Assembly: GCA_007131895.1 (NCBI GenBank)
Contig: SLPR01000254.1
Coordinates: 1-31,903, forward strand
DNA length: 31,903 nt
Direction: 5' to 3'
From: Bacteroidales bacterium
Lineage (GTDB): Bacteria > Bacteroidota > Bacteroidia > Bacteroidales > UBA7960
The notes below the pieces were generated by a model. It was not told the DNA's origin and did no database searches. It saw nothing but the letters and a program-made list of their open reading frames with translations. How positions within the stretch are numbered: the first letter of the stretch is position 1; every line of letters begins with the position of its first letter. Both the position numbers and the translations under genes were made by a program. Of the stretch, positions 1,752 through 11,097 are shown piece after piece.

Positions 1752-2567
1752 ATGAGCAATTTCTTTCAGGATATTCTGGCTGAAGTGCATCAGTATTATG
1801 ATGGACTGGTAGCCTTTTTTCCACGGTTGTTGATGGGAATTATCATTCTTGTGGTTACCTGGGTTATCTCGCGACAAATACGCAATGCAGCAGACCGCAG
1901 ATTAAAGAAGCAAATGGAAGATCCACTGCTGGCAGAGTTTCTTGCTACCATGGCCCGTGCATTGGTTTTTATTTTCGGGCTGCTGTTTGCCTTAAAAGCA
2001 TTGGGTCTTGGAGGAATCACTGCGAGCATATTGGCCGGTGCGGGTATCACTGCCTTTATCATTGGATTTGCCTTGCGCGATATTGGCGAAAATTTTCTTG
2101 CCGGTATACTTTTGGCTTTCAAAAGACCCTTCAGGGTTGGTGATTTTATTGAAACCGGAGCCACCAAAGGACGCGTTATTAGTCTCAATATCAGGGACAC
2201 GCACTTGAAAACTCCGGATGGTAAAGATGTGTATGTGCCCAATGCTCAGTTTATCAAAATACCCCTGATTAACTATACGATTGATGGGTTTCTCAGGTAT
2301 GACTTTGTGTTAGGTATACCCACTTCGGCTGATTATGAAAAGGCCATGAACGACATTGCTTCATCAGTTAACTCCATAGAGGGGGTTATCCAGAGAAGGA
2401 GAAAGACGCAGGTTTTTGTTTCGGGCATTGCTCCCGGAAGAGTGGATGTAACGGTCAGTTTCTGGATCGATACATTTAAAATCCGGACTACTGCCGATGT
2501 GATACGCTCTGAGGTCTTTAAAAAGGTACAGGCTGAAGTGGATAAGCTTGCAGGGGACAAATCCTGA
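1752..2567 (+). CDS. mscS: Small-conductance mechanosensitive channel (MscS family)
   Basis: Three TM helices, GAGITAFIIGFALRD (TM3), KRPFRVGDFIE, G.V.SLNIRDT, VYVPNAQF motifs. Confidence 0.92.
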   Translation: MSNFFQDILAEVHQYYDGLVAFFPRLLMGIIILVVTWVISRQIRNAADRRLKKQMEDPLLAEFLATMARALVFIFGLLFALKALGLGGITASILAGAGITAFIIGFALRDIGENFLAGILLAFKRPFRVGDFIETGATKGRVISLNIRDTHLKTPDGKDVYVPNAQFIKIPLINYTIDGFLRYDFVLGIPTSADYEKAMNDIASSVNSIEGVIQRRRKTQVFVSGIAPGRVDVTVSFWIDTFKIRTTADVIRSEVFKKVQAEVDKLAGDKS

Positions 2568-2601
2568 TTACACTCATTGTCCGGTTTTCTGAAAACACAC
2601 T

Positions 2602-3441
2602 TTATCTGGATGCATTTTTCTTAACTCCAATGCCGGCAGTAATACGGTCGAGAATAATGGCCAGGATGACTACCACAAGACCGGCTTCAAAACCTTGTCC
2701 TACCTGCAATCTCTGGATACCCCGCAATACATCTTCTCCCAGTCCTCCCGCTCCAATCATGGCAGCAATTACTACCATCGACAATCCCAGCATGATAGAC
2801 TGATTCACCCCTGCCAGGATGGTTGGTTTGGCCACGGGGATTTGCACCCTCATAAGTTTCTGAAATTCGGTGGCTCCAAAAGCATCTGCTGCTTCCACCA
2901 GTTCAACGGGTACTTGCCGTATGCCCAGGTTGGTCAGGCGGATAAGCGGAGGCAAGGCAAACACGAAAGTAGCTACGACTCCCGGCACCAGTCCCAATCC
3001 GAAAAACATTACCGCAGGTATGAGGTAAACAAATGCAGGCATGGTTTGCATAAAGTCGAGGATTGGGCGTAGAATGGCATTGAAGCGATCGCTGCGCGCA
3101 GCCCATATTCCTAAAGGTAGCCCCACAAGAATCACAATAATTTCTGCTGATAGTACCAGGGCGAGGGTTTCCACAAAGGCTTCCCATAAACCGATGTTTT
3201 CGCTCAACAACAGGCCAAGAAAGGCGATGATGCTGTTCTTCCAGCCTGCCATATACCAGGTTATGCCTGTAATGATGAGTATTAGCACAATGGGAGGGAG
3301 AAAAAGCATCCCCTCTTTGAGGTTATCAACCAGAAAATAGATGAATGCACTGAAACCGTCAAAAACTGGTCCCAGCTCCCTCTCCAGGTATTCAACTGCA
3401 GTGGTAACCCAGTCTCTTAATGGAATTCTATAAGGAAACAT
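2602..3441 (-). CDS. proW: Glycine betaine/proline betaine ABC transporter permease (ProW/OpuAB)
   Basis: RPILDFMQTMPAFVYLIP and EAA loop (ELVEAADAFGAT..QKL..VQIP), QSIMLGLSMVVIAAMIGAGGLG. Confidence 0.95.
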   Translation of the reverse strand: MFPYRIPLRDWVTTAVEYLERELGPVFDGFSAFIYFLVDNLKEGMLFLPPIVLILIITGITWYMAGWKNSIIAFLGLLLSENIGLWEAFVETLALVLSAEIIVILVGLPLGIWAARSDRFNAILRPILDFMQTMPAFVYLIPAVMFFGLGLVPGVVATFVFALPPLIRLTNLGIRQVPVELVEAADAFGATEFQKLMRVQIPVAKPTILAGVNQSIMLGLSMVVIAAMIGAGGLGEDVLRGIQRLQVGQGFEAGLVVVILAIILDRITAGIGVKKNASR

Positions 3442-3563
3442 AATGTTGAAAATTTAAAGTTTTATAGTAATGGGGACATTTTACTGTGCCGGAAAGGCTG
3501 TGTGATGATTAAAAAGCTATAGCCAGTGATTTTTTATGTTCCGGGTTTAGAAAGTGTTGGTTT

Positions 3564-4790
3564 TTATGTTTTTCCGTTTTCTCCGGGAATATATGATTCT
3601 GAAAGTGCTGCTATTACAGCTCCTTTTACAATTACCCCTTTGACTTTATTTTGTTTGTCAACCACTGCAATGGGGCCGAATTCATGGTCGGTGTACATAT
3701 TGATGATCTCGTTAAGAGGAGTATTTTCTTCTACGCTGGCGGGTTCATGCAGCAGTCCTTCATTCATTGGAATATTTTCAGCGTCTTTGTTTTTATTGAT
3801 ATAGTCTGCAAGCTCAGAGGCCCTTATGTAGGCTTTGAGCTCTTTGCGGGTGTTGGTCATAAGGATGCCGGTGAGGCCCTTTTTACGGATTTTGCGCAGG
3901 ATGGTCCTTGGTCCATCCCCCTCAAAAGCGGTATCTTCAACAGGTTGCATTACCGATGCAGCAGTGAATATGGCAGATCTGTCCATATCGACTACAAAAG
4001 CTTTTACATAGTCATTGGCCGGCCGGGAGATGATTTCTTCGGCTGTGCCGATCTGTACGATTCCCCCGTCATCCATGATTGCGATTCGGTTACCCAGCCG
4101 AAAGGCTTCATCCAGATCATGAGTAACAAAAATGATGGTTTTTTGCATACGATCCTGGATTTCCAGCAATTCGTCCTGCATTTGCCTGCGAATGATGGGA
4201 TCCAGCGCACTGAAGGCTTCATCCATCAGCAGGATATCAGCATCTACTGCCAGCCCGCGAGCCAGGCCTACCCTTTGCTGCATACCACCAGAAAGTTCAT
4301 CAGGATAGCTGTTCTCGTGCCCTTCCAATCCTACCAGTTTGATCACCTCTATCGCTTTTTTGGCTCTCGTTGGCTTGTCTACTGATTGAAGTTCCAGCCC
4401 AAACTCAACATTTTCCTGCACGGTGAGATGGGGCAGGATAGCAAAGTTCTGAAATACCATCCCACAGAAATGCTTGCGGCGAAAATTGCGCAATTCTTTC
4501 TTGTTTAGTTTGGTGATGTCGGTTCCGTCGATAATAATTTCTCCCTGGCTGGGCTCGTGCAAGCGGTTGAGCAATCGCTGAAGAGTAGATTTGCCGCTTC
4601 CTGAAAGCCCCATAAGTACAAATATTTCGCTCTTTTTCACCGAAAAAGACACATCATATACACCCACCTTCTGATTCAATTCACGAAGGATGTCATTTTT
4701 CGATTTGCCTTTTTTGAGTTCCCCAATCGCTTTTTCGGGGTTTTTACCAAATATCTTTGATAGATTCTTTACTATTATTTTATCTTCCAT
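3564..4790 (-). CDS. proV: Glycine betaine ABC transporter ATP-binding subunit with C-terminal CBS pair (ProV/OpuAA)
   Basis: Walker A GLSGSGKST, signature LSGGMQQRV, Walker B LLMDEAFSALDP, C-terminal CBS-like domains. Confidence 0.95.
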   Translation of the reverse strand: MEDKIIVKNLSKIFGKNPEKAIGELKKGKSKNDILRELNQKVGVYDVSFSVKKSEIFVLMGLSGSGKSTLQRLLNRLHEPSQGEIIIDGTDITKLNKKELRNFRRKHFCGMVFQNFAILPHLTVQENVEFGLELQSVDKPTRAKKAIEVIKLVGLEGHENSYPDELSGGMQQRVGLARGLAVDADILLMDEAFSALDPIIRRQMQDELLEIQDRMQKTIIFVTHDLDEAFRLGNRIAIMDDGGIVQIGTAEEIISRPANDYVKAFVVDMDRSAIFTAASVMQPVEDTAFEGDGPRTILRKIRKKGLTGILMTNTRKELKAYIRASELADYINKNKDAENIPMNEGLLHEPASVEENTPLNEIINMYTDHEFGPIAVVDKQNKVKGVIVKGAVIAALSESYIPGENGKT

Positions 4791-4873
4791 GATTGGTTTT
4801 ATAGAGTACGGATTGTTACCGGTTGAAACTGCCGGTAAGGGGCAAAATGAAAATGCCTGTTGACTTTGGATAG

Positions 4874-4915
4874 AAACACTGCCGGAAAATTTGCCCCATT
4901 CCGGCAGTGTTTTTA
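4874..4915. terminator. Strong 14-bp hairpin between proX and proV (terminator or mRNA-stabilising stem)
   Basis: AAACACTGCCGGAA (4874-4887) / TTCCGGCAGTGTTT (4899-4912); long T-run on the + side, only a short U-run in the sense (minus) direction. Confidence 0.6.
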
Positions 4916-4954
4916 TTTTGTCAGGACGAACCTAAAGAGGCATCAGGCATGATT

Positions 4955-5818
4955 TTATTGCAGCCATGCATTCACTTTTTCAGGGTTTTCGGCTATCCAC
5001 TGCCTGGCAGCGTCCATGGGTTCCATATCATCTTCAATGAGCATCATCACTTCTGCCATGTCATCGGGGGTCCAGTAGAAATTGTCCAGAAATGCAAATA
5101 CTTCCGGGGCTTTTGTCTGGAGATTAGGATGCACAATGGTGGCAATGTGTTCTTCTTCGCCTAGTGATAATTTGGGATCCTCCAGGTATTTGAGGTCGAA
5201 GGCAGCAAACTTCCAGTGGGGTGTCCATCCGGTAACTACTATCCATTCTTCTCTCTCAATGGCGCGTTGCAAGGCAGCAGTCATTGCTGCATCAGAGCCG
5301 GAAACCAGGCGGAAATTGTCCAGTTCATAATCTTCCATTACTTTTTCACTGGCAGCCATAAGGCCTGCGCCCGGATCAATGCCTATGATTTGTTCGTTGA
5401 ATTCTTCTGCATATTCATTGAGCTCATCAATGCTGTTTACAGGCACATACGAAGGCACCACCCATCCCAGGCGGGCACCCTCAAGATTTGGCCCCAGGTT
5501 GATAATATCATCAGCGGTTTGGTCGAGGTAAGCTTCGTGGGTCGTAGGCAGCCAGGCAGCTACGATGGCATCAAAGTCACCCCTGGCAACACCCATCCAC
5601 ATGGGGCCTGCATCTACAGCAGTAAGGGATACTTCTTCACCTAGTCTGTCTTCAATCACTGCTGCTACCACGTGGGTTGAAGCAATTTCAGAGTCCCATA
5701 AAACATATCCCAGTTTAATTTTTTCTGTTCGGGGTTCGCACGAGCTTATCATAAATAATACTCCTACCAATGCAAAACCTTTCAGCAGGTTTGAAATCGT
5801 TTTTTTTGTCATCATCAT
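4955..5818 (-). CDS. proX: Glycine betaine ABC substrate-binding lipoprotein (ProX/OpuAC-like)
   Basis: Lipobox MISSC; Trp-prism motifs LWDSEIAST, AAWLPTTH, GWTPHW. Start moved from ORF-track 5884 to the ATG run at 5818-5810 so the signal peptide begins the protein. Confidence 0.92.
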   Translation of the reverse strand: MMMTKKTISNLLKGFALVGVLFMISSCEPRTEKIKLGYVLWDSEIASTHVVAAVIEDRLGEEVSLTAVDAGPMWMGVARGDFDAIVAAWLPTTHEAYLDQTADDIINLGPNLEGARLGWVVPSYVPVNSIDELNEYAEEFNEQIIGIDPGAGLMAASEKVMEDYELDNFRLVSGSDAAMTAALQRAIEREEWIVVTGWTPHWKFAAFDLKYLEDPKLSLGEEEHIATIVHPNLQTKAPEVFAFLDNFYWTPDDMAEVMMLIEDDMEPMDAARQWIAENPEKVNAWLQ

Positions 5819-5968
5819 AATTGGTTTTTGAGGTTTGTGATAAAAATTTGTTGGGTGAGGTTTTTCCTGGCCGCTGGTGTACATAGCGTATTACACTTGA
5901 GGCTTCAAGAAAGCCATTTATATCCCAATCAAAAGAATTGTGTTGAAAAATATTTTTAAAACCGGGAA

Positions 5969-7231
5969 TTAGAAATAATACCCGATATTTACATTGAAGC
6001 GCAGGTTCCAGTTTACATCTTCCAGCGGGAGCGGTTTTCCTTCAGCGTCCAGATGTCCTGCACCCAATCCGGTTCCGAAGTAATCCGTAAGCCAGGGATG
6101 GTTTTTACCCAGGGCAAAATCAACATAGGTATAAATGTTTCCTGCCGTAATCATAAATCCGGGCACAATCATGTAAGAATTCTGGAAATTAAAATCAGCA
6201 TCCCCGGGAATTAAACTTCCATCTTTGGTCATCATGGAATAATCAAAATAGGGGAGGATGTTGCTGATGGGCCCCCATTGCACCGGTATGCTATAGGCTA
6301 AACCCGCAGTGATGAGTGAACCTCTTGCCGCAACTCCGTCGCCATAATAAGGGTCGCCATAAGCACCCATTTGCACGCGATTGAGGGTATTGCCCTCGTC
6401 GTCACGCGCTTTATAGTCGTAAGATGTATATTGCAGTTTGAGGTTGAAGCCGGAGAAATCAGAGTTCAGATGTACGGCCCATGCATTGCCATAGTCTGTT
6501 TCCTGCAACACTGAGTTGTAAAGCCCTTTAATCTGACCGGAAAATCCCAGTTGTGTACCGTCGAAAATTTCGTAGGCCGCACGCAGGTTAAACTGGTTCA
6601 TCTCACGGATAGACGAGGTGGCTCCCGACTCCGATAGAACGCCGTCGGTGTCGGGTATCACATTGTAGGAATAAGTCCCCGCTCCGGGTCCTCCAAAGCT
6701 GGCGCTGCCATAAGCAGGCCCTGCAGGCTCTGCTTGCCTGAAATAAGCAAAGGAAATATCCAGCTTCTCTGAAGCAGCATAATTGAATTTGATCCCCATG
6801 TTATAGTCATCCTCCAGCCCTAAATAATAGGGCATGAGAAACCACCAGCTGTGGGAGTTGTAGGTAAGATTCCCAAAGGGAACCTGCGTGACCCCCAATT
6901 GCATTTCAAGGTCCTCGTTAAAGTTGTATCCCAGAAATCCATGGTGAATAAAATGGGTGTTGAAGGTGGGATAAAACCGGTACTCAAAATCGAGTACAAC
7001 ACCACTGTAGCGTGCTGCAACGTTAAGCCTCCAGGTGTCGAAAGTGGCATAAGTACTGGTGGGAGTACGGGCACTTTCATAATTCTGACTTACCACGTTG
7101 ATGCGGAATGCACCGCCAATTCTCAGATAATCTTCATCTTCTGTCTCCTGTGCAAAAGAGGGTAAAGAGATGAAGCTTACACAAAGAAGAATAAATAGTT
7201 TTGTCAACAAATTTTTCGTAAAGATTCTCAT
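5969..7231 (-). CDS. Uncharacterised outer-membrane beta-barrel (porin-like) protein
   Basis: Cleavable signal peptide (..LPSFA/QE), alternating aromatic beta-strand pattern, C-terminal beta-signal FNVNIGYYF; first gene of the proX-V-W run. Confidence 0.8.
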   Translation of the reverse strand: MRIFTKNLLTKLFILLCVSFISLPSFAQETEDEDYLRIGGAFRINVVSQNYESARTPTSTYATFDTWRLNVAARYSGVVLDFEYRFYPTFNTHFIHHGFLGYNFNEDLEMQLGVTQVPFGNLTYNSHSWWFLMPYYLGLEDDYNMGIKFNYAASEKLDISFAYFRQAEPAGPAYGSASFGGPGAGTYSYNVIPDTDGVLSESGATSSIREMNQFNLRAAYEIFDGTQLGFSGQIKGLYNSVLQETDYGNAWAVHLNSDFSGFNLKLQYTSYDYKARDDEGNTLNRVQMGAYGDPYYGDGVAARGSLITAGLAYSIPVQWGPISNILPYFDYSMMTKDGSLIPGDADFNFQNSYMIVPGFMITAGNIYTYVDFALGKNHPWLTDYFGTGLGAGHLDAEGKPLPLEDVNWNLRFNVNIGYYF

Positions 7232-7277
7232 AAATTTTAGGATTAATGAATACTATGAATAATTAAATGCTTGCGAA

Positions 7278-7285
7278 CAAACATA
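7278..7285 (-). promoter_or_regulatory. Proximal -7 element (TATGTTTG) for the porin-proXVW operon
   Basis: Exact TAnnTTTG on the minus strand, 46 nt upstream of ATG 7231. Confidence 0.45.
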
Positions 7286-7520
7286 CTATGAACTTACCTG
7301 GGAGGAAATTATGGTAATTGTAATTGCACAGCCGCGGCTGTCAGCTAGCAGGTTCTTGCAACTTTTATGGTTTGGTTTCATACATGCAGCAGGCATACAT
7401 GATGCATCTGATGTTTGTAAACAATAAAGATGTTGAAGAACTTTTACGAAGGCATGGCAGGTAGATGGTTCTCCGATAGTGAGGAGGTGAAAATCTGTAT
7501 TTTTCTGCCCGTTTGCAATG

Positions 7521-7528
7521 CAAATATA
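7521..7528 (-). promoter_or_regulatory. Distal -7 element (TATATTTG) pointing toward the porin operon
   Basis: Exact TAnnTTTG followed by CA on the minus strand. Confidence 0.5.
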
Positions 7529-7584
7529 AACATGTAAGGTTATATAGCACAATAAAACCGGTTTTTTTTTTGTAATCGTTTTTG

Positions 7585-7592
7585 TACATTTG
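7585..7592 (+). promoter_or_regulatory. -7 element (TACATTTG) for the BCCT-USP-SBP operon
   Basis: Exact TAnnTTTG, 67 nt upstream of ATG 7660, divergent from 7521-7528. Confidence 0.55.
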
Positions 7593-7659
7593 TCTGAAAA
7601 ACTATAAAAATTAAGAGCTTATAGTGATTTTTTATGGATAATATTTTATTATTTACAAT

Positions 7660-9276
7660 ATGAAAGATGCGAAGGAAAAAAAAGGAGCAGTGGCACCTAA
7701 AAAGAACAAGTACTTTGAAATAGATCCCTGGGTTTTCTGGCCCTCGTCTGTTTTGATCGTGTTTTTTATTGCTGTCACTCTGCTGGTGGGTGAGCCTATG
7801 GAGCGGGTTTTTGCCAGTATTCAGAACAATATTTCAGAGTTTGGAGGCTGGTTTTTCGTGTTGGCCGTAAATATTTTTCTGATTTTTTCTCTCTCCATTG
7901 CCTTCAGCAAGTTTGGGAATATCCGGCTGGGAGGACGAACGGCCAAGCCGGAGTTTAAAAAGATATCGTGGTTTGCCATGTTGTTCAGTGCCGGTATGGG
8001 AATCGGGATTTTATTCTGGAGTGTGGGTGAGCCGGTATTGCATTATGTCAATCCTCCTGCAGGGCCGGGAGAAACCGTCGAAGCTGCCCGCAAGTCCATG
8101 CAATTCACCTTTTTACACTGGGGTTTGCATGCATGGGGCATTTATGCTTTGGTGGGAATGTCGCTGGCTTTTTTTACTTTCAATAAGAAACTCCCGCTAA
8201 CTATCAGTTCGGTTTTTCATCCTCTAATCGGCGATGGGATTCACGGCAAACTGGGTAAATCCATCAACGTATTGGCTGTAGTAGCCACACTCTTTGGTTT
8301 GGCCACATCACTGGGAATGGGAGTACAGCAGGTAAGTGCCGGTCTGAACCATTTGCTGGGTTGGCCCGACAATACCAATATGCAGGTTATTCTTATTGGT
8401 GTTATAACCCTGGCAGCTACCGGCTCAGTGGTGGCAGGGCTGAGCCATGGGGTAAAACGTTTGAGTCAGCTCAACATAATTATCGGAGCTTTTTTCTTGT
8501 TGTTTATGCTCATTGTGGGGCCTTCCCTGTTTATCTTCAGCTCGTTTGTGCAAAATATAGGAGGGTATCTGCAAAACTTTTTTGAGTTGAGTTTCTGGAC
8601 AGAAACCTATACCCAGTCTGACTGGCAAAAAAGCTGGACTGTTTTTTACTGGGCCTGGTGGATCAGCTGGTCTCCTTTTGTGGGGATGTTTATTGCCCGT
8701 ATTTCGCGCGGTCGCACCATTCGTGAGTTTATTCTTGGGGTGTTGATTGTACCCACCATTCTTACCTTTTTGTGGTTGTCGGCCTTTGGGGGTTCGGCAC
8801 TTTTCCTGGAGCTTAATGGACTGGCCAATATAACGGATGCGGTGCAAAATAATGTGGCCACTTCACTCTTTGTTTTGCTGGACCAGTTTCCCATTGGTGC
8901 CTTTACTTCTGTTGTTGGAATTATCCTGGTGACCAGCTTCTTTATTACCTCTTCCGATTCCGGGTCGCTGGTGATTGACAGCCTCACAGCAGGAGGGAAG
9001 CTGGATGCTCCTGTTACGCAGAGAGTGTTCTGGGCCCTTACAGAAGGGGGTGTTGCTGCAGTACTGCTCATTGGTGGAGGACTGGGGGCTTTGCAAACAG
9101 CCGCGATCACTACCGGCCTGCCATTTACCATTATTTTGCTATTAATGGCATACAGCCTCACCAAAGGTCTTTCGCAGGAGCATTACAAACTGATGAGGTA
9201 CGACTTGGAGAAGGAGCGGAAATCTTACCTGGATATCGTAACCGATGTTGTATCTAAAAGAGAAAAAAAATCCTAA
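7660..9276 (+). CDS. BCCT-family transporter, Na+-coupled glycine betaine type (OpuD/BetP-like)
   Basis: LFSAGMGIG (Gly, not the Asp of H+-coupled choline carrier BetT), HWGLHAW, WTVFYWAWWISWSPFVG aromatic box, FFITSSDS Na2-site motif. Confidence 0.93.
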   Translation: MKDAKEKKGAVAPKKNKYFEIDPWVFWPSSVLIVFFIAVTLLVGEPMERVFASIQNNISEFGGWFFVLAVNIFLIFSLSIAFSKFGNIRLGGRTAKPEFKKISWFAMLFSAGMGIGILFWSVGEPVLHYVNPPAGPGETVEAARKSMQFTFLHWGLHAWGIYALVGMSLAFFTFNKKLPLTISSVFHPLIGDGIHGKLGKSINVLAVVATLFGLATSLGMGVQQVSAGLNHLLGWPDNTNMQVILIGVITLAATGSVVAGLSHGVKRLSQLNIIIGAFFLLFMLIVGPSLFIFSSFVQNIGGYLQNFFELSFWTETYTQSDWQKSWTVFYWAWWISWSPFVGMFIARISRGRTIREFILGVLIVPTILTFLWLSAFGGSALFLELNGLANITDAVQNNVATSLFVLLDQFPIGAFTSVVGIILVTSFFITSSDSGSLVIDSLTAGGKLDAPVTQRVFWALTEGGVAAVLLIGGGLGALQTAAITTGLPFTIILLLMAYSLTKGLSQEHYKLMRYDLEKERKSYLDIVTDVVSKREKKS

Positions 9277-9288
9277 AACGATAATGTT

Positions 9289-10206
9289 ATGTTTAAACTT
9301 GATAAATTACTGATATGCCTTGATCTCACCGAAATGGATGAGTCATTGATTAGGTATGCCAATTTTATGGTGGAAACCTTCAGCCCCTCTTCTGTAACCT
9401 TTATTCATGTGATGGATACTTACGAAATACCGGAAGAAATAATAGGTACCATAACGGATAGTGACAGGCCTCTGAAAGATTTGCTGAAAGAGGAGATAGA
9501 GGAAAAAGTGCAGGAGCATTATCAACACGCAGACAAATTAAAGCCCACCGTAGTAATGGAAGAAGGGCTTACTGTGGAGAAAATTGTAAAGTACGCTCAG
9601 AAAAACAAAACAGACCTGGCCGTGATGGGCAAAAAGGTTGGATATATTGGTGAGGGAGGAGTGGTGAAGAAGATTATTGGTTTGATTCCATCATCGGTTT
9701 TACTCATCAGTGAAACATCTGCCTATCGGTTCACCAGGATTATGGTACGCACAAATTTTGCCAGTCCTTCTGTAGTGGCATTCCAGATGGCCAAATTCCT
9801 CCAGAATGTAACCGGAGCAAGTGTTGAATTTCACAATGTGTACAAACTTCCCTACAATTACTTCCCCGAACAAACAGCACAGGCAGCACAAAAACTAAAA
9901 GCACGATTGGAGCCCTATATGACAAAAAAGTATGAGAAATTTGTCGCAAAATACAAGTTGCCAACTGATATCCCTTTCAACTACACGGTAGATGTTAAAG
10001 GGGATGAAGCCCAGTCGTTGTATAATTATGCGGTAAGAAACCAGGTAGATCTGGTTATCACGGGTACGCGCCTCAAATCGCAACTGGCCAATATTATCAT
10101 GGACAGTACTTCAGAAAAACTGGCCGGGGTTGAAAAGAATATTCCTGTTTTGATTGTAAAAGATGTGAAAGAATTTGTAGGCTTTTTCAAAGCATTATTC
10201 GAATAG
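9289..10206 (+). CDS. Universal stress protein with two USP domains
   Basis: KLLICLDLT...FIHV...DLAVMG and RIMVRTNF...DLVITG...STSEKL...IPVLIV; 12 bp after BCCT. Confidence 0.88.
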   Translation: MFKLDKLLICLDLTEMDESLIRYANFMVETFSPSSVTFIHVMDTYEIPEEIIGTITDSDRPLKDLLKEEIEEKVQEHYQHADKLKPTVVMEEGLTVEKIVKYAQKNKTDLAVMGKKVGYIGEGGVVKKIIGLIPSSVLLISETSAYRFTRIMVRTNFASPSVVAFQMAKFLQNVTGASVEFHNVYKLPYNYFPEQTAQAAQKLKARLEPYMTKKYEKFVAKYKLPTDIPFNYTVDVKGDEAQSLYNYAVRNQVDLVITGTRLKSQLANIIMDSTSEKLAGVEKNIPVLIVKDVKEFVGFFKALFE

Positions 10207-10221
10207 TAAAAAGATACGTAT

Positions 10222-11097
10222 ATGAAAAGTAGTATGGTTAAATTACTGGTGTTTACGCTGTTGCTGGGAAGTTGTGTTTCTCCTTCCGACCGCGCCGTAA
10301 GTGAACAACGAGAGATAAAAATGCTTTATACCGACTGGTCGGAAAGCATAGCCATGACCTACCTCGCCTCCGTTTTGCTGGAAAGGGATATGGGGTTTAA
10401 GGTAACCACCCGCATGACAGATGTAGACGATATATTCAATACTATTGCTTCCGGCGAGGCGGATGTATTTCTGGATGTTTGGTTGCCTGCCACCCATAGT
10501 GAGTATATTGACCTTTATGGCGACAGAATCGAGCTATTAGGGTTGAATTATGAACCCGCACGTACCGGCCTGGTTGTTCCGGATTATATGGGTGTTGATA
10601 ATATAGAGCAACTCAGGGAGTATTATCAGGGTCCAATTGTGGGCATAGACACTACCGCCGGCATTATGCGCGTGACCCGTGAAGCTCTTGATGTGTACAA
10701 TCTTCCCAATGAGCTGCTGGGATTGTCGGAAGAGCAGATGACCGAAAGGTTGCGCACCGCAGTGCAACGCCAGGAAGATATCGTAATCACAGGATGGGAG
10801 CCCCATTGGATTTTCTTCCGGTATGATCTGCGGTTTCTGGAGGATCCGCAAATGATTTACATGGCTGAGGAGCAGATATACAGCATCGCCCGAACCGGCT
10901 TTGCTGAAGAGTTTGTCCATGTAATCACCTTCCTCAATAGAATGGTGCTGACCGAACGACAAATGAAGTCACTGCTTTTTGAAATGCACCTAAGTCCCGA
11001 TCCGCTGGAGGGGGTGAAAAGATGGATTCAAAGCAACGAGTTTGTGGTCAACCAATGGACCCGGGGACTGGGACCTGAAAGGGAAAAGATTATGTAA
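10222..11097 (+). CDS. Second glycine betaine-type substrate-binding lipoprotein (OpuAC-like), not next to ABC genes
   Basis: Lipobox LLGSC; YTDWSES, DVWLPATH, GWEPHW Trp motifs; 15 bp after the USP gene. Confidence 0.9.
   Translation: MKSSMVKLLVFTLLLGSCVSPSDRAVSEQREIKMLYTDWSESIAMTYLASVLLERDMGFKVTTRMTDVDDIFNTIASGEADVFLDVWLPATHSEYIDLYGDRIELLGLNYEPARTGLVVPDYMGVDNIEQLREYYQGPIVGIDTTAGIMRVTREALDVYNLPNELLGLSEEQMTERLRTAVQRQEDIVITGWEPHWIFFRYDLRFLEDPQMIYMAEEQIYSIARTGFAEEFVHVITFLNRMVLTERQMKSLLFEMHLSPDPLEGVKRWIQSNEFVVNQWTRGLGPEREKIM

Follow-up and report, generated by a model that had tools for sequence, protein, structure and literature searches.

A candidate osmoprotectant porin family encoded beside betaine-type importers in four bacterial phyla

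Introduction

Compatible-solute uptake has long been studied as an inner-membrane process, and the outer-membrane step has been assumed to proceed through general porins. In E. coli, betaine is thought to enter via the general porins OmpC and OmpF (PMC13300293). A 31,903-nucleotide stretch of DNA from a Bacteroidales bacterium (contig SLPR01000254.1, assembly GCA_007131895.1), analysed here at its full length and referred to as the window, raises the question of whether this step may have a channel of its own: an outer-membrane barrel gene stands there between two sets of betaine-type importer genes, and an initial annotation made from the sequence alone proposed that it encodes a dedicated osmoprotectant porin. 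Taking together the predicted fold of the barrel, the lining of its pore and the gene neighbourhood of its homologs, we find that "candidate osmoprotectant porin" is the reading that best fits this family, in view of an importer linkage that extends over four phyla and recurs in several gene orders.

Results

Gene layout and expression of the locus

The reading frame and translation of the barrel gene agree with the initial annotation, as do its place at the head of a minus-strand run with proX, proV and proW, all four on the same strand, and the divergent region that it shares with the BCCT operon (Table 1). The BCCT-Usp-OpuAC unit on the other side of this region is a second importer neighbour of the barrel. 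Pfam annotation places MscS and cation pumps in the window as well, making it an osmoadaptation cluster, and the barrel gene is present as a single copy in its 83%-complete genome. The proX reading frame probably starts at an internal run of Met codons about 22 codons downstream of the listed ATG (window 5740-5884, minus strand).

Table 1. Features of the barrel locus, in window coordinates
Feature	Coordinates	Strand	Basis and remarks
Barrel gene (P0001), 420 aa; 16-strand porin by prediction, from an unnamed family bordering on Porin_O_P	5969..7231	-	ORF and translation
Signal peptide, residues 1-27, predicted cleavage after SFA	7151..7231	-	Sequence; model helix 2-21, then low pLDDT at 24-31; no lipobox
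Loop L3, residues 116-143, QVPFGNLTYNSHSWWFLMPYYLGLEDDY, presumed pore-constricting	6803..6886	-	Between strands 5 and 6; short helix 133-137
Last strand, residues 409-420, NLRFNVNIGYYF, C-terminal beta-signal with terminal Phe	5972..6007	-	Sequence
OpuAC-type binding protein ("proX"), lipoprotein, lipobox ISSC	4955..5884	-	PF04069 at 9.4e-70
ProV/OpuAA ATPase with CBS domain	3564..4790	-	TIGR01186 proV 411.6 bits, above cut-off; ABC_tran and CBS
ProW/OpuAB permease	2602..3441	-	BPD_transp_1; choline and ProW permease models at ~1e-90 to 1e-99
Divergent intergenic region between barrel and BCCT, 428 bp	7232..7659	.	Putative promoter region
Divergent unit: BCCT 7660-9276, tandem Usp 9289-10206, second OpuAC lipoprotein 10222-11097	7660..11097	+	

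No terminator-like site was found between the barrel gene and proX on the minus strand, the sigma-70 promoter and terminator scans performed at chance level, and Rfam revealed no RNA family within the window. A Bacteroidetes-type TAnnTTTG box at 7278-7285, 47 nt upstream of the ATG, was considered and dropped, as relatives do not share it. Perfect-match contigs on the barrel gene, proX, proW and the second OpuAC gene came from a metatranscriptome of the same soda-lake sediment, a weak hint that the barrel gene is expressed; such RNA-library contigs are uninformative on co-transcription, strand and level, and uncovered stretches of BCCT and Usp are no sign of silence.

Ends and composition of the barrel protein

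Both ends of the protein are those of an outer-membrane barrel, in line with the cleavable signal and C-terminal beta-signal that had been assigned to it. The N-terminal sequence MRIFTKNLLTKLFILLCVSFISLPSFA, with a basic n-region, a hydrophobic core, an S-F-A motif and no lipobox, precedes a predicted mature start at QETEDED, and the protein ends in RFNVNIGYYF. Residues R411, N413, N415, G417, Y418, Y419 and F420 are invariant in the close alignment (A1), and the terminal Phe is retained in 57 of the 60 sequences of the wide alignment (A3). The richness in Tyr, Trp and Phe to which the initial annotation had drawn attention held up in part: the strings HFIHHGFLGY (93-102), YNSHSWWF (124-131) and YYLGLEDDY (135-143) are present, but Tyr/Phe richness is normal for outer-membrane barrels (34 Y, 27 F and 7 W in 393 mature residues), and in the model HFIHHGFLGY forms transmembrane strand 4 with alternate residues pointing outward, only the other two strings falling in loop L3. 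The net charge of the mature barrel is -22.

Fold and family placement

Structure prediction had been suggested as a means of counting the strands. An AlphaFold2 model built with 42 homologs (pLDDT 86.7, pTM 0.82) is a confident 16-strand porin, in which eight long loops on the outer side and seven short turns connect 16 long predicted strands. Foldseek matched the model to OmpT, VhChiP, OmpK36 and OmpF at E ~1e-12, and VIA-align, with the model as query, gave OprP as the top match (PDB 2o4v, 2o4v_A; Z 25.1, rmsd 3.1 Å, 310 residues aligned), followed by Omp-Pst1 (Z 24.1), Omp32 (Z 23.7) and then DcaP and PorB, with VhChiP (Z 22.7) and OprB (Z 19.3) also among the matches. We regard the protein as very likely a porin-type channel.

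The sequence, as the initial annotation had recognised in naming no characterised family for it, stands apart from described groups. The window barrel has no family match in Pfam or NCBIfam, and neither the close (A1) nor the wide (A3) profile gave a meaningful match among PDB sequences. Against Porin_O_P (PF07396; gathering score 20.9 bits) the window barrel is unmatched even at E <= 1, and one of the 42 close relatives gives a match, at E 0.096; three distant, longer members score 20.9-21.9 bits and a fourth 19.0, and Porin_O_P is the automatic name of ESM Atlas neighbours and of one UniRef entry. Porin_1 and Porin_4 likewise leave the window barrel unmatched, with only two of the 42 relatives matching Porin_4 (E ~0.009-0.01). 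On sequence and model, we would put the family on the outermost fringe of the OprP-type porins without counting it as a member. A word-index search retrieved 1205 proteins of the family, and an exhaustive search 445 clusters at 50% identity. On strands 2-4, polar residues assigned by strand parity to the outer face are conserved, among them D65 (47 of 60 sequences) and H96 (32 of 60); they are the one lead towards a possible homotrimer of the kind formed by classical general porins.

Some distant members depart from the usual length. N-terminal extensions of 100-220 aa occur in P0140, P0153, P0155, P0157 and P0172 and contain no clear Pfam domain, with one weak leucine-zipper-like match and one weak FlgT_C match among them; they are reminiscent of the N-terminal coiled coil of the DcaP porin. 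The 905-aa P0234 appears fused to a UvrD-like helicase C-terminal domain, most likely through a gene-call or assembly artefact.

Loop L3 and the predicted pore lining

Loop L3, a connector of 28 residues, is the most conserved connector of the barrel (0.86 vs 0.69 overall), and in the model its position, length, short helix and conservation would fit an L3 that folds into the lumen, as in classical porins. It is made up of aromatics and three acidic residues (E140, D141, D142) and contains no Lys or Arg. Lumen-facing residues were assigned in the model from hydrophobicity parity along the strands together with conservation; by this assignment the invariant lumen-facing residues include R43, R68, R85, R217, R411, H254, Y328, D330 and D371, and the lumen as a whole is strongly acidic. 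Loop L2 has only 4 residues, making a latching loop impossible.

The wide comparison of 60 sequences, which are only 27-52% identical to the window barrel, revealed that the L3 and wall signature positions are retained in 47-60 of them. G138 is found in all 60, PFG in 56-59, and positions 129 and 130 are aromatic in 59; the acidic residues E140, D141 and D142 are kept in 52, 53 and 47 sequences, respectively, and R85, H254 and Y328 in 58 each. An arginine cluster opposite an acidic and aromatic L3 would, in the modelled pore, suit a zwitterion with a trimethylammonium head. General, non-specific porins such as OmpF, however, likewise have an acidic L3 across from an arginine cluster, and the layout is therefore no proof of selectivity. 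Moreover, the L3 and wall signature is present in four distant members (31-36% identity) whose genes have only unrelated neighbours; it thus represents a family hallmark and is no proof of betaine recognition or of betaine-specific adaptation.

Gene neighbourhood across species

The initial annotation had proposed examining homologs of the barrel for linkage to osmolyte transport genes. Loci were collected from different species (80) and from a phylum-wide genome sample (18, which may repeat some of these species), and homologs of the window transporter genes were located in the 94 loci that had enough flanking DNA; P0131 and P0235, on contigs too short, were left out of the judgement of context. 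The linkage to proVWX/opuA and BCCT genes proved very strong, an OpuA-type ABC or BCCT importer being linked to the barrel gene in 92 of the 94 informative loci. In 84 of them, importer genes follow immediately downstream in the same orientation, mostly after 5-220 bp; five loci have the divergent BCCT-Usp-OpuAC unit only, and in three the barrel is the last gene, following V-W-X-X. The remaining two, from Alkalitalea and Natronoflexus (L007, L009), carry the barrel alone beside a TonB-dependent receptor. Copies that lack an importer neighbour are found in the linked clade too.

The loci span four phyla (Bacteroidota, Balneolota, Calditrichota and Fibrobacterota), and among the cultured carriers are Mariniphaga anaerophila (DSM 26910, L070) and Tangfeifania diversioriginum (DSM 27063, L050), both with a locus of the VWX type, as well as Saccharicrinis and Draconibacterium. 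At least five gene orders occur (B>X-V-W, B>V-W-X, B>BCCT-Usp, B>W-X-V and V-W-X-X>B, with B the barrel); on the barrel tree at least 12 changes of gene order are required, and the BCCT link must have arisen at least twice to account for the well-supported branches. A metagenomic member with 38% identity heads a BCCT-Usp pair, and the divergent BCCT-Usp-OpuAC unit of the window is common to L001-L005, L015, L017, L018, L021, L024-L026 and L054.

Two of these loci differ from the window (1752-7231) in that the proXVW cassette is missing, namely L001 (94% identical; 7406-9493) and L026 (3886-6004), and in both a convergent MscS gene follows directly after the barrel. The ABC module seems to enter or leave the locus as one unit, with the barrel and the divergent BCCT-Usp-OpuAC unit staying in place. 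In G299, a genome from the same order, the barrel is followed by W-X-V, and an AraC-type regulator with a GyrI-like effector domain comes next (L117:4449-5426, minus strand). It is a candidate local regulator, and the window carries no such gene.

Occurrence in an even sample of the phylum

Among 401 genomes drawn evenly from the phylum and covering 180 genera, the barrel was found in 33 genomes (8%) and 18 genera. It adjoins an importer in 28 of the 33, an OpuA-type ABC system in 15 and a BCCT carrier in 13; the other five copies (G052, G276, G212, G260 and G104), from two genera of one family, stand alone beside unrelated genes in genomes that each have a BCCT elsewhere. OpuAC occurs in 65 of the 401 genomes and BCCT in 43, one or the other in 97, and all 33 barrel genomes carry OpuAC or BCCT, compared with 97 of 401 overall; related genomes are not independent, so that these co-occurrence counts overstate significance and no p-value is given. 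The barrel is present in 24 of the 43 BCCT genomes but in only 18 of the 65 OpuAC genomes. OpuA systems thus work without the barrel, most of those in the phylum lacking it, and the barrel is therefore an accessory.

OpuAC matches in barrel-less Bacteroidota lie mostly in reading frames of about 500 aa (e.g., G088:C1:1344-2105), apparently fused permease-binding-protein OpuA as in L. lactis, and barrel-linked systems have a separate binding protein of about 300 aa.

Importer partners and their substrate class

The closest solved match of the window proX is the glycine-betaine-binding OpuAC of B. subtilis (8.5e-70), with L. lactis OpuA also close. The best solved match of the window BCCT (plus strand) is TmaT of Myroides (8zw8), at 592 bits vs 347 for BetP. 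TmaT has been shown to be specific for trimethylamine (TMA) (PMC11708041, PMC7997507). All of the TMA-contact residues, M105, W146, W151, Y154, W325, W326 and W329, are conserved in the window BCCT, and as judged from sequence its substrate may be TMA instead of, or besides, betaine. Being nearest to a trimethylamine-specific carrier, this BCCT extends the possible substrate class of the barrel beyond betaine. The Met105/GMGIG motif was considered as a discriminator between TMA and betaine in BCCT carriers and was rejected, given that BetP has the motif too.

What the ABC and BCCT importers share is the trimethylammonium group of their substrates and not a mechanism, and we accordingly link the barrel to a class of substrates, and not just to osmotic control.

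Both OpuAC-type proteins of the window are lipoproteins, the lipobox of the second (10222-10280, plus strand) being LGSC. Surface export in Bacteroidota is marked by a run of acidic residues behind the lipid-modified Cys; neither protein has one, and the idea that the barrel pairs with surface-exposed OpuAC lipoproteins in the manner of SusCD was dropped for this reason.

Read depth in all three DNA runs shows a spike at window 8351-8681 (51-198 vs ~5-10 elsewhere), with many loose ends at 8623-8720, probably caused by a highly conserved BCCT stretch that recruits contigs of other organisms.

Discussion

Our results suggest that this family is probably the outer-membrane entry step for betaine-type osmoprotectants, that is, for trimethylammonium solutes, a reading that draws on sequence comparison and a structural model. 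We put the probability that the barrel is functionally coupled to uptake of betaine-type solutes at roughly two in three. The barrel would serve as a passive diffusion channel of the outer membrane, admitting small trimethylammonium solutes, glycine betaine first and possibly choline or trimethylamine, to the periplasm, where the OpuAC lipoproteins with the OpuA-type ABC system, or the BCCT carrier, would take them up; the barrel gene would be co-expressed with the importers. The putative eyelet would be formed by L3 (W129, W130, F131, Y135, Y136, E140, D141, D142) facing R43, R68, R85 and R411, and its field may orient a zwitterion with the carboxylate to the arginines and the trimethylammonium group to the acidic and aromatic loop. 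True selectivity of the modelled pore for trimethylammonium solutes is put forward tentatively, the odds being somewhat against it. The same holds for the farther-reaching proposal of a dedicated channel family for glycine betaine, choline and TMA in which the solute would be read by the eyelet itself, its carboxylate bound by the arginine cluster and its trimethylammonium head by the E-D-D run and the aromatic residues of L3, and might then be handed straight to the lipoprotein OpuAC tethered below. We consider this proposal conceivable, yet on balance it is more apt to fail than to hold.

An osmoregulated general porin, the counterpart of the OmpC/OmpK36 "osmoporin", would come to neighbour the importers only through shared induction at high salinity. 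The fold and eyelet layout fit such a porin well, with OmpK36, OmpF and OmpC among the best Foldseek matches, the L3 and wall signature extends through the whole family, unlinked members included, stand-alone copies exist in the seven genomes noted above, and the window, with its MscS and cation pumps, is an osmoadaptation cluster. The linkage, however, is specific to importers of one substrate class and was re-established in at least five gene orders, with two transporter types that are unrelated to each other. The barrel is confined to genomes with OpuAC or BCCT, one would look for a general porin in more than 8% of the phylum, and the conservation of L3 is unusually high for the loop of a general porin. 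We thus consider a general porin unlikely, although it retains real weight, and prefer the reading as an entry step for betaine-type solutes.

The rank of OprP as best structural match, together with the distant members at the Porin_O_P threshold and the automatic names of this type, could also point to an anion channel for phosphate or polyphosphate like OprP and OprO. This is exceedingly improbable for a barrel that finds no PF07396 match even at E = 1, whose L3 bears three acidic residues and no Lys or Arg in a mature protein of strongly negative net charge, and whose neighbours are betaine-type importers, with no phosphate-uptake gene in the window or the annotated loci. A different role altogether, as a small-cation pore, a route of solute exit alongside MscS or a structural outer-membrane protein, would accord with the acidic lumen and with the MscS gene that adjoins the barrel in L001 and L026 and lies nearby in the window; MscS adjacency is nevertheless rare and a by-product of the loss of the ABC cassette, the importers being the consistent neighbours, and we regard such a role as very improbable.

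The repeated placement of a porin beside ABC- and BCCT-type importers suggests that, in halophilic and alkaliphilic bacteria of the FCB group, outer-membrane entry may be selected for, and possibly rate-limiting, in the scavenging of betaine-type solutes. Should the dedicated-channel proposal prove true, compatible-solute uptake would gain in the barrel its first component located in the outer membrane. The assignment offers a name and a testable function for at least 445 clusters (50% identity) that have no Pfam or NCBIfam model, and with them a candidate new pore chemistry for small zwitterions and methylated amines, compounds of importance for carbon, nitrogen and methane cycling in saline sediments. 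Within the literature searchable, we found no dedicated betaine, choline or TMA porin described, and the TmaT literature mentions neither a porin nor the gene neighbourhood. Specific porins with operon linkage are an established type; no description of a porin family serving compatible solutes was found in that literature.

Comparison with known systems

With OprP and OprO the barrel shares a 16-strand architecture of similar length, and distant members of the family touch the Pfam threshold. As oprP sits by pst, the barrel gene sits beside a binding-protein-dependent importer. The pore lining of OprP, including its constriction loop, is basic (Arg/Lys) and gives anion/phosphate selectivity, whereas the barrel has the acidic E140, D141 and D142 and no Lys or Arg in L3, with conserved wall arginines that face the lumen by parity. 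The two groups further differ in that the window barrel has no significant sequence match to OprP or OprO and that the partners here are betaine-type importers instead of phosphate-uptake genes.

The likeness to OmpF, OmpC and OmpK36 lies in the 16 strands and in an acidic L3 facing an arginine cluster, and the conserved P-F-G turn of the barrel L3 resembles PEFGG, a motif of enterobacterial porins. In contrast, sequence identity is 11-17%, L2 of the barrel forms no latching loop, and the barrel gene is embedded in importer operons, where OmpF, OmpC and OmpK36 are encoded by stand-alone genes for abundant porins.

Operon-linked specific channels are known in LamB with mal, OprB with the glucose ABC system, ChiP with chitobiose uptake, and OprP. 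The family described here differs from LamB, OprB and ChiP in sequence family and in substrate class, the candidates being compatible solutes and methylated amines, and follows the same logic, in which the gene for an outer-membrane channel is kept beside that for an inner-membrane importer, as is seen here in 92 of 94 loci and 28 of 33 genomes.
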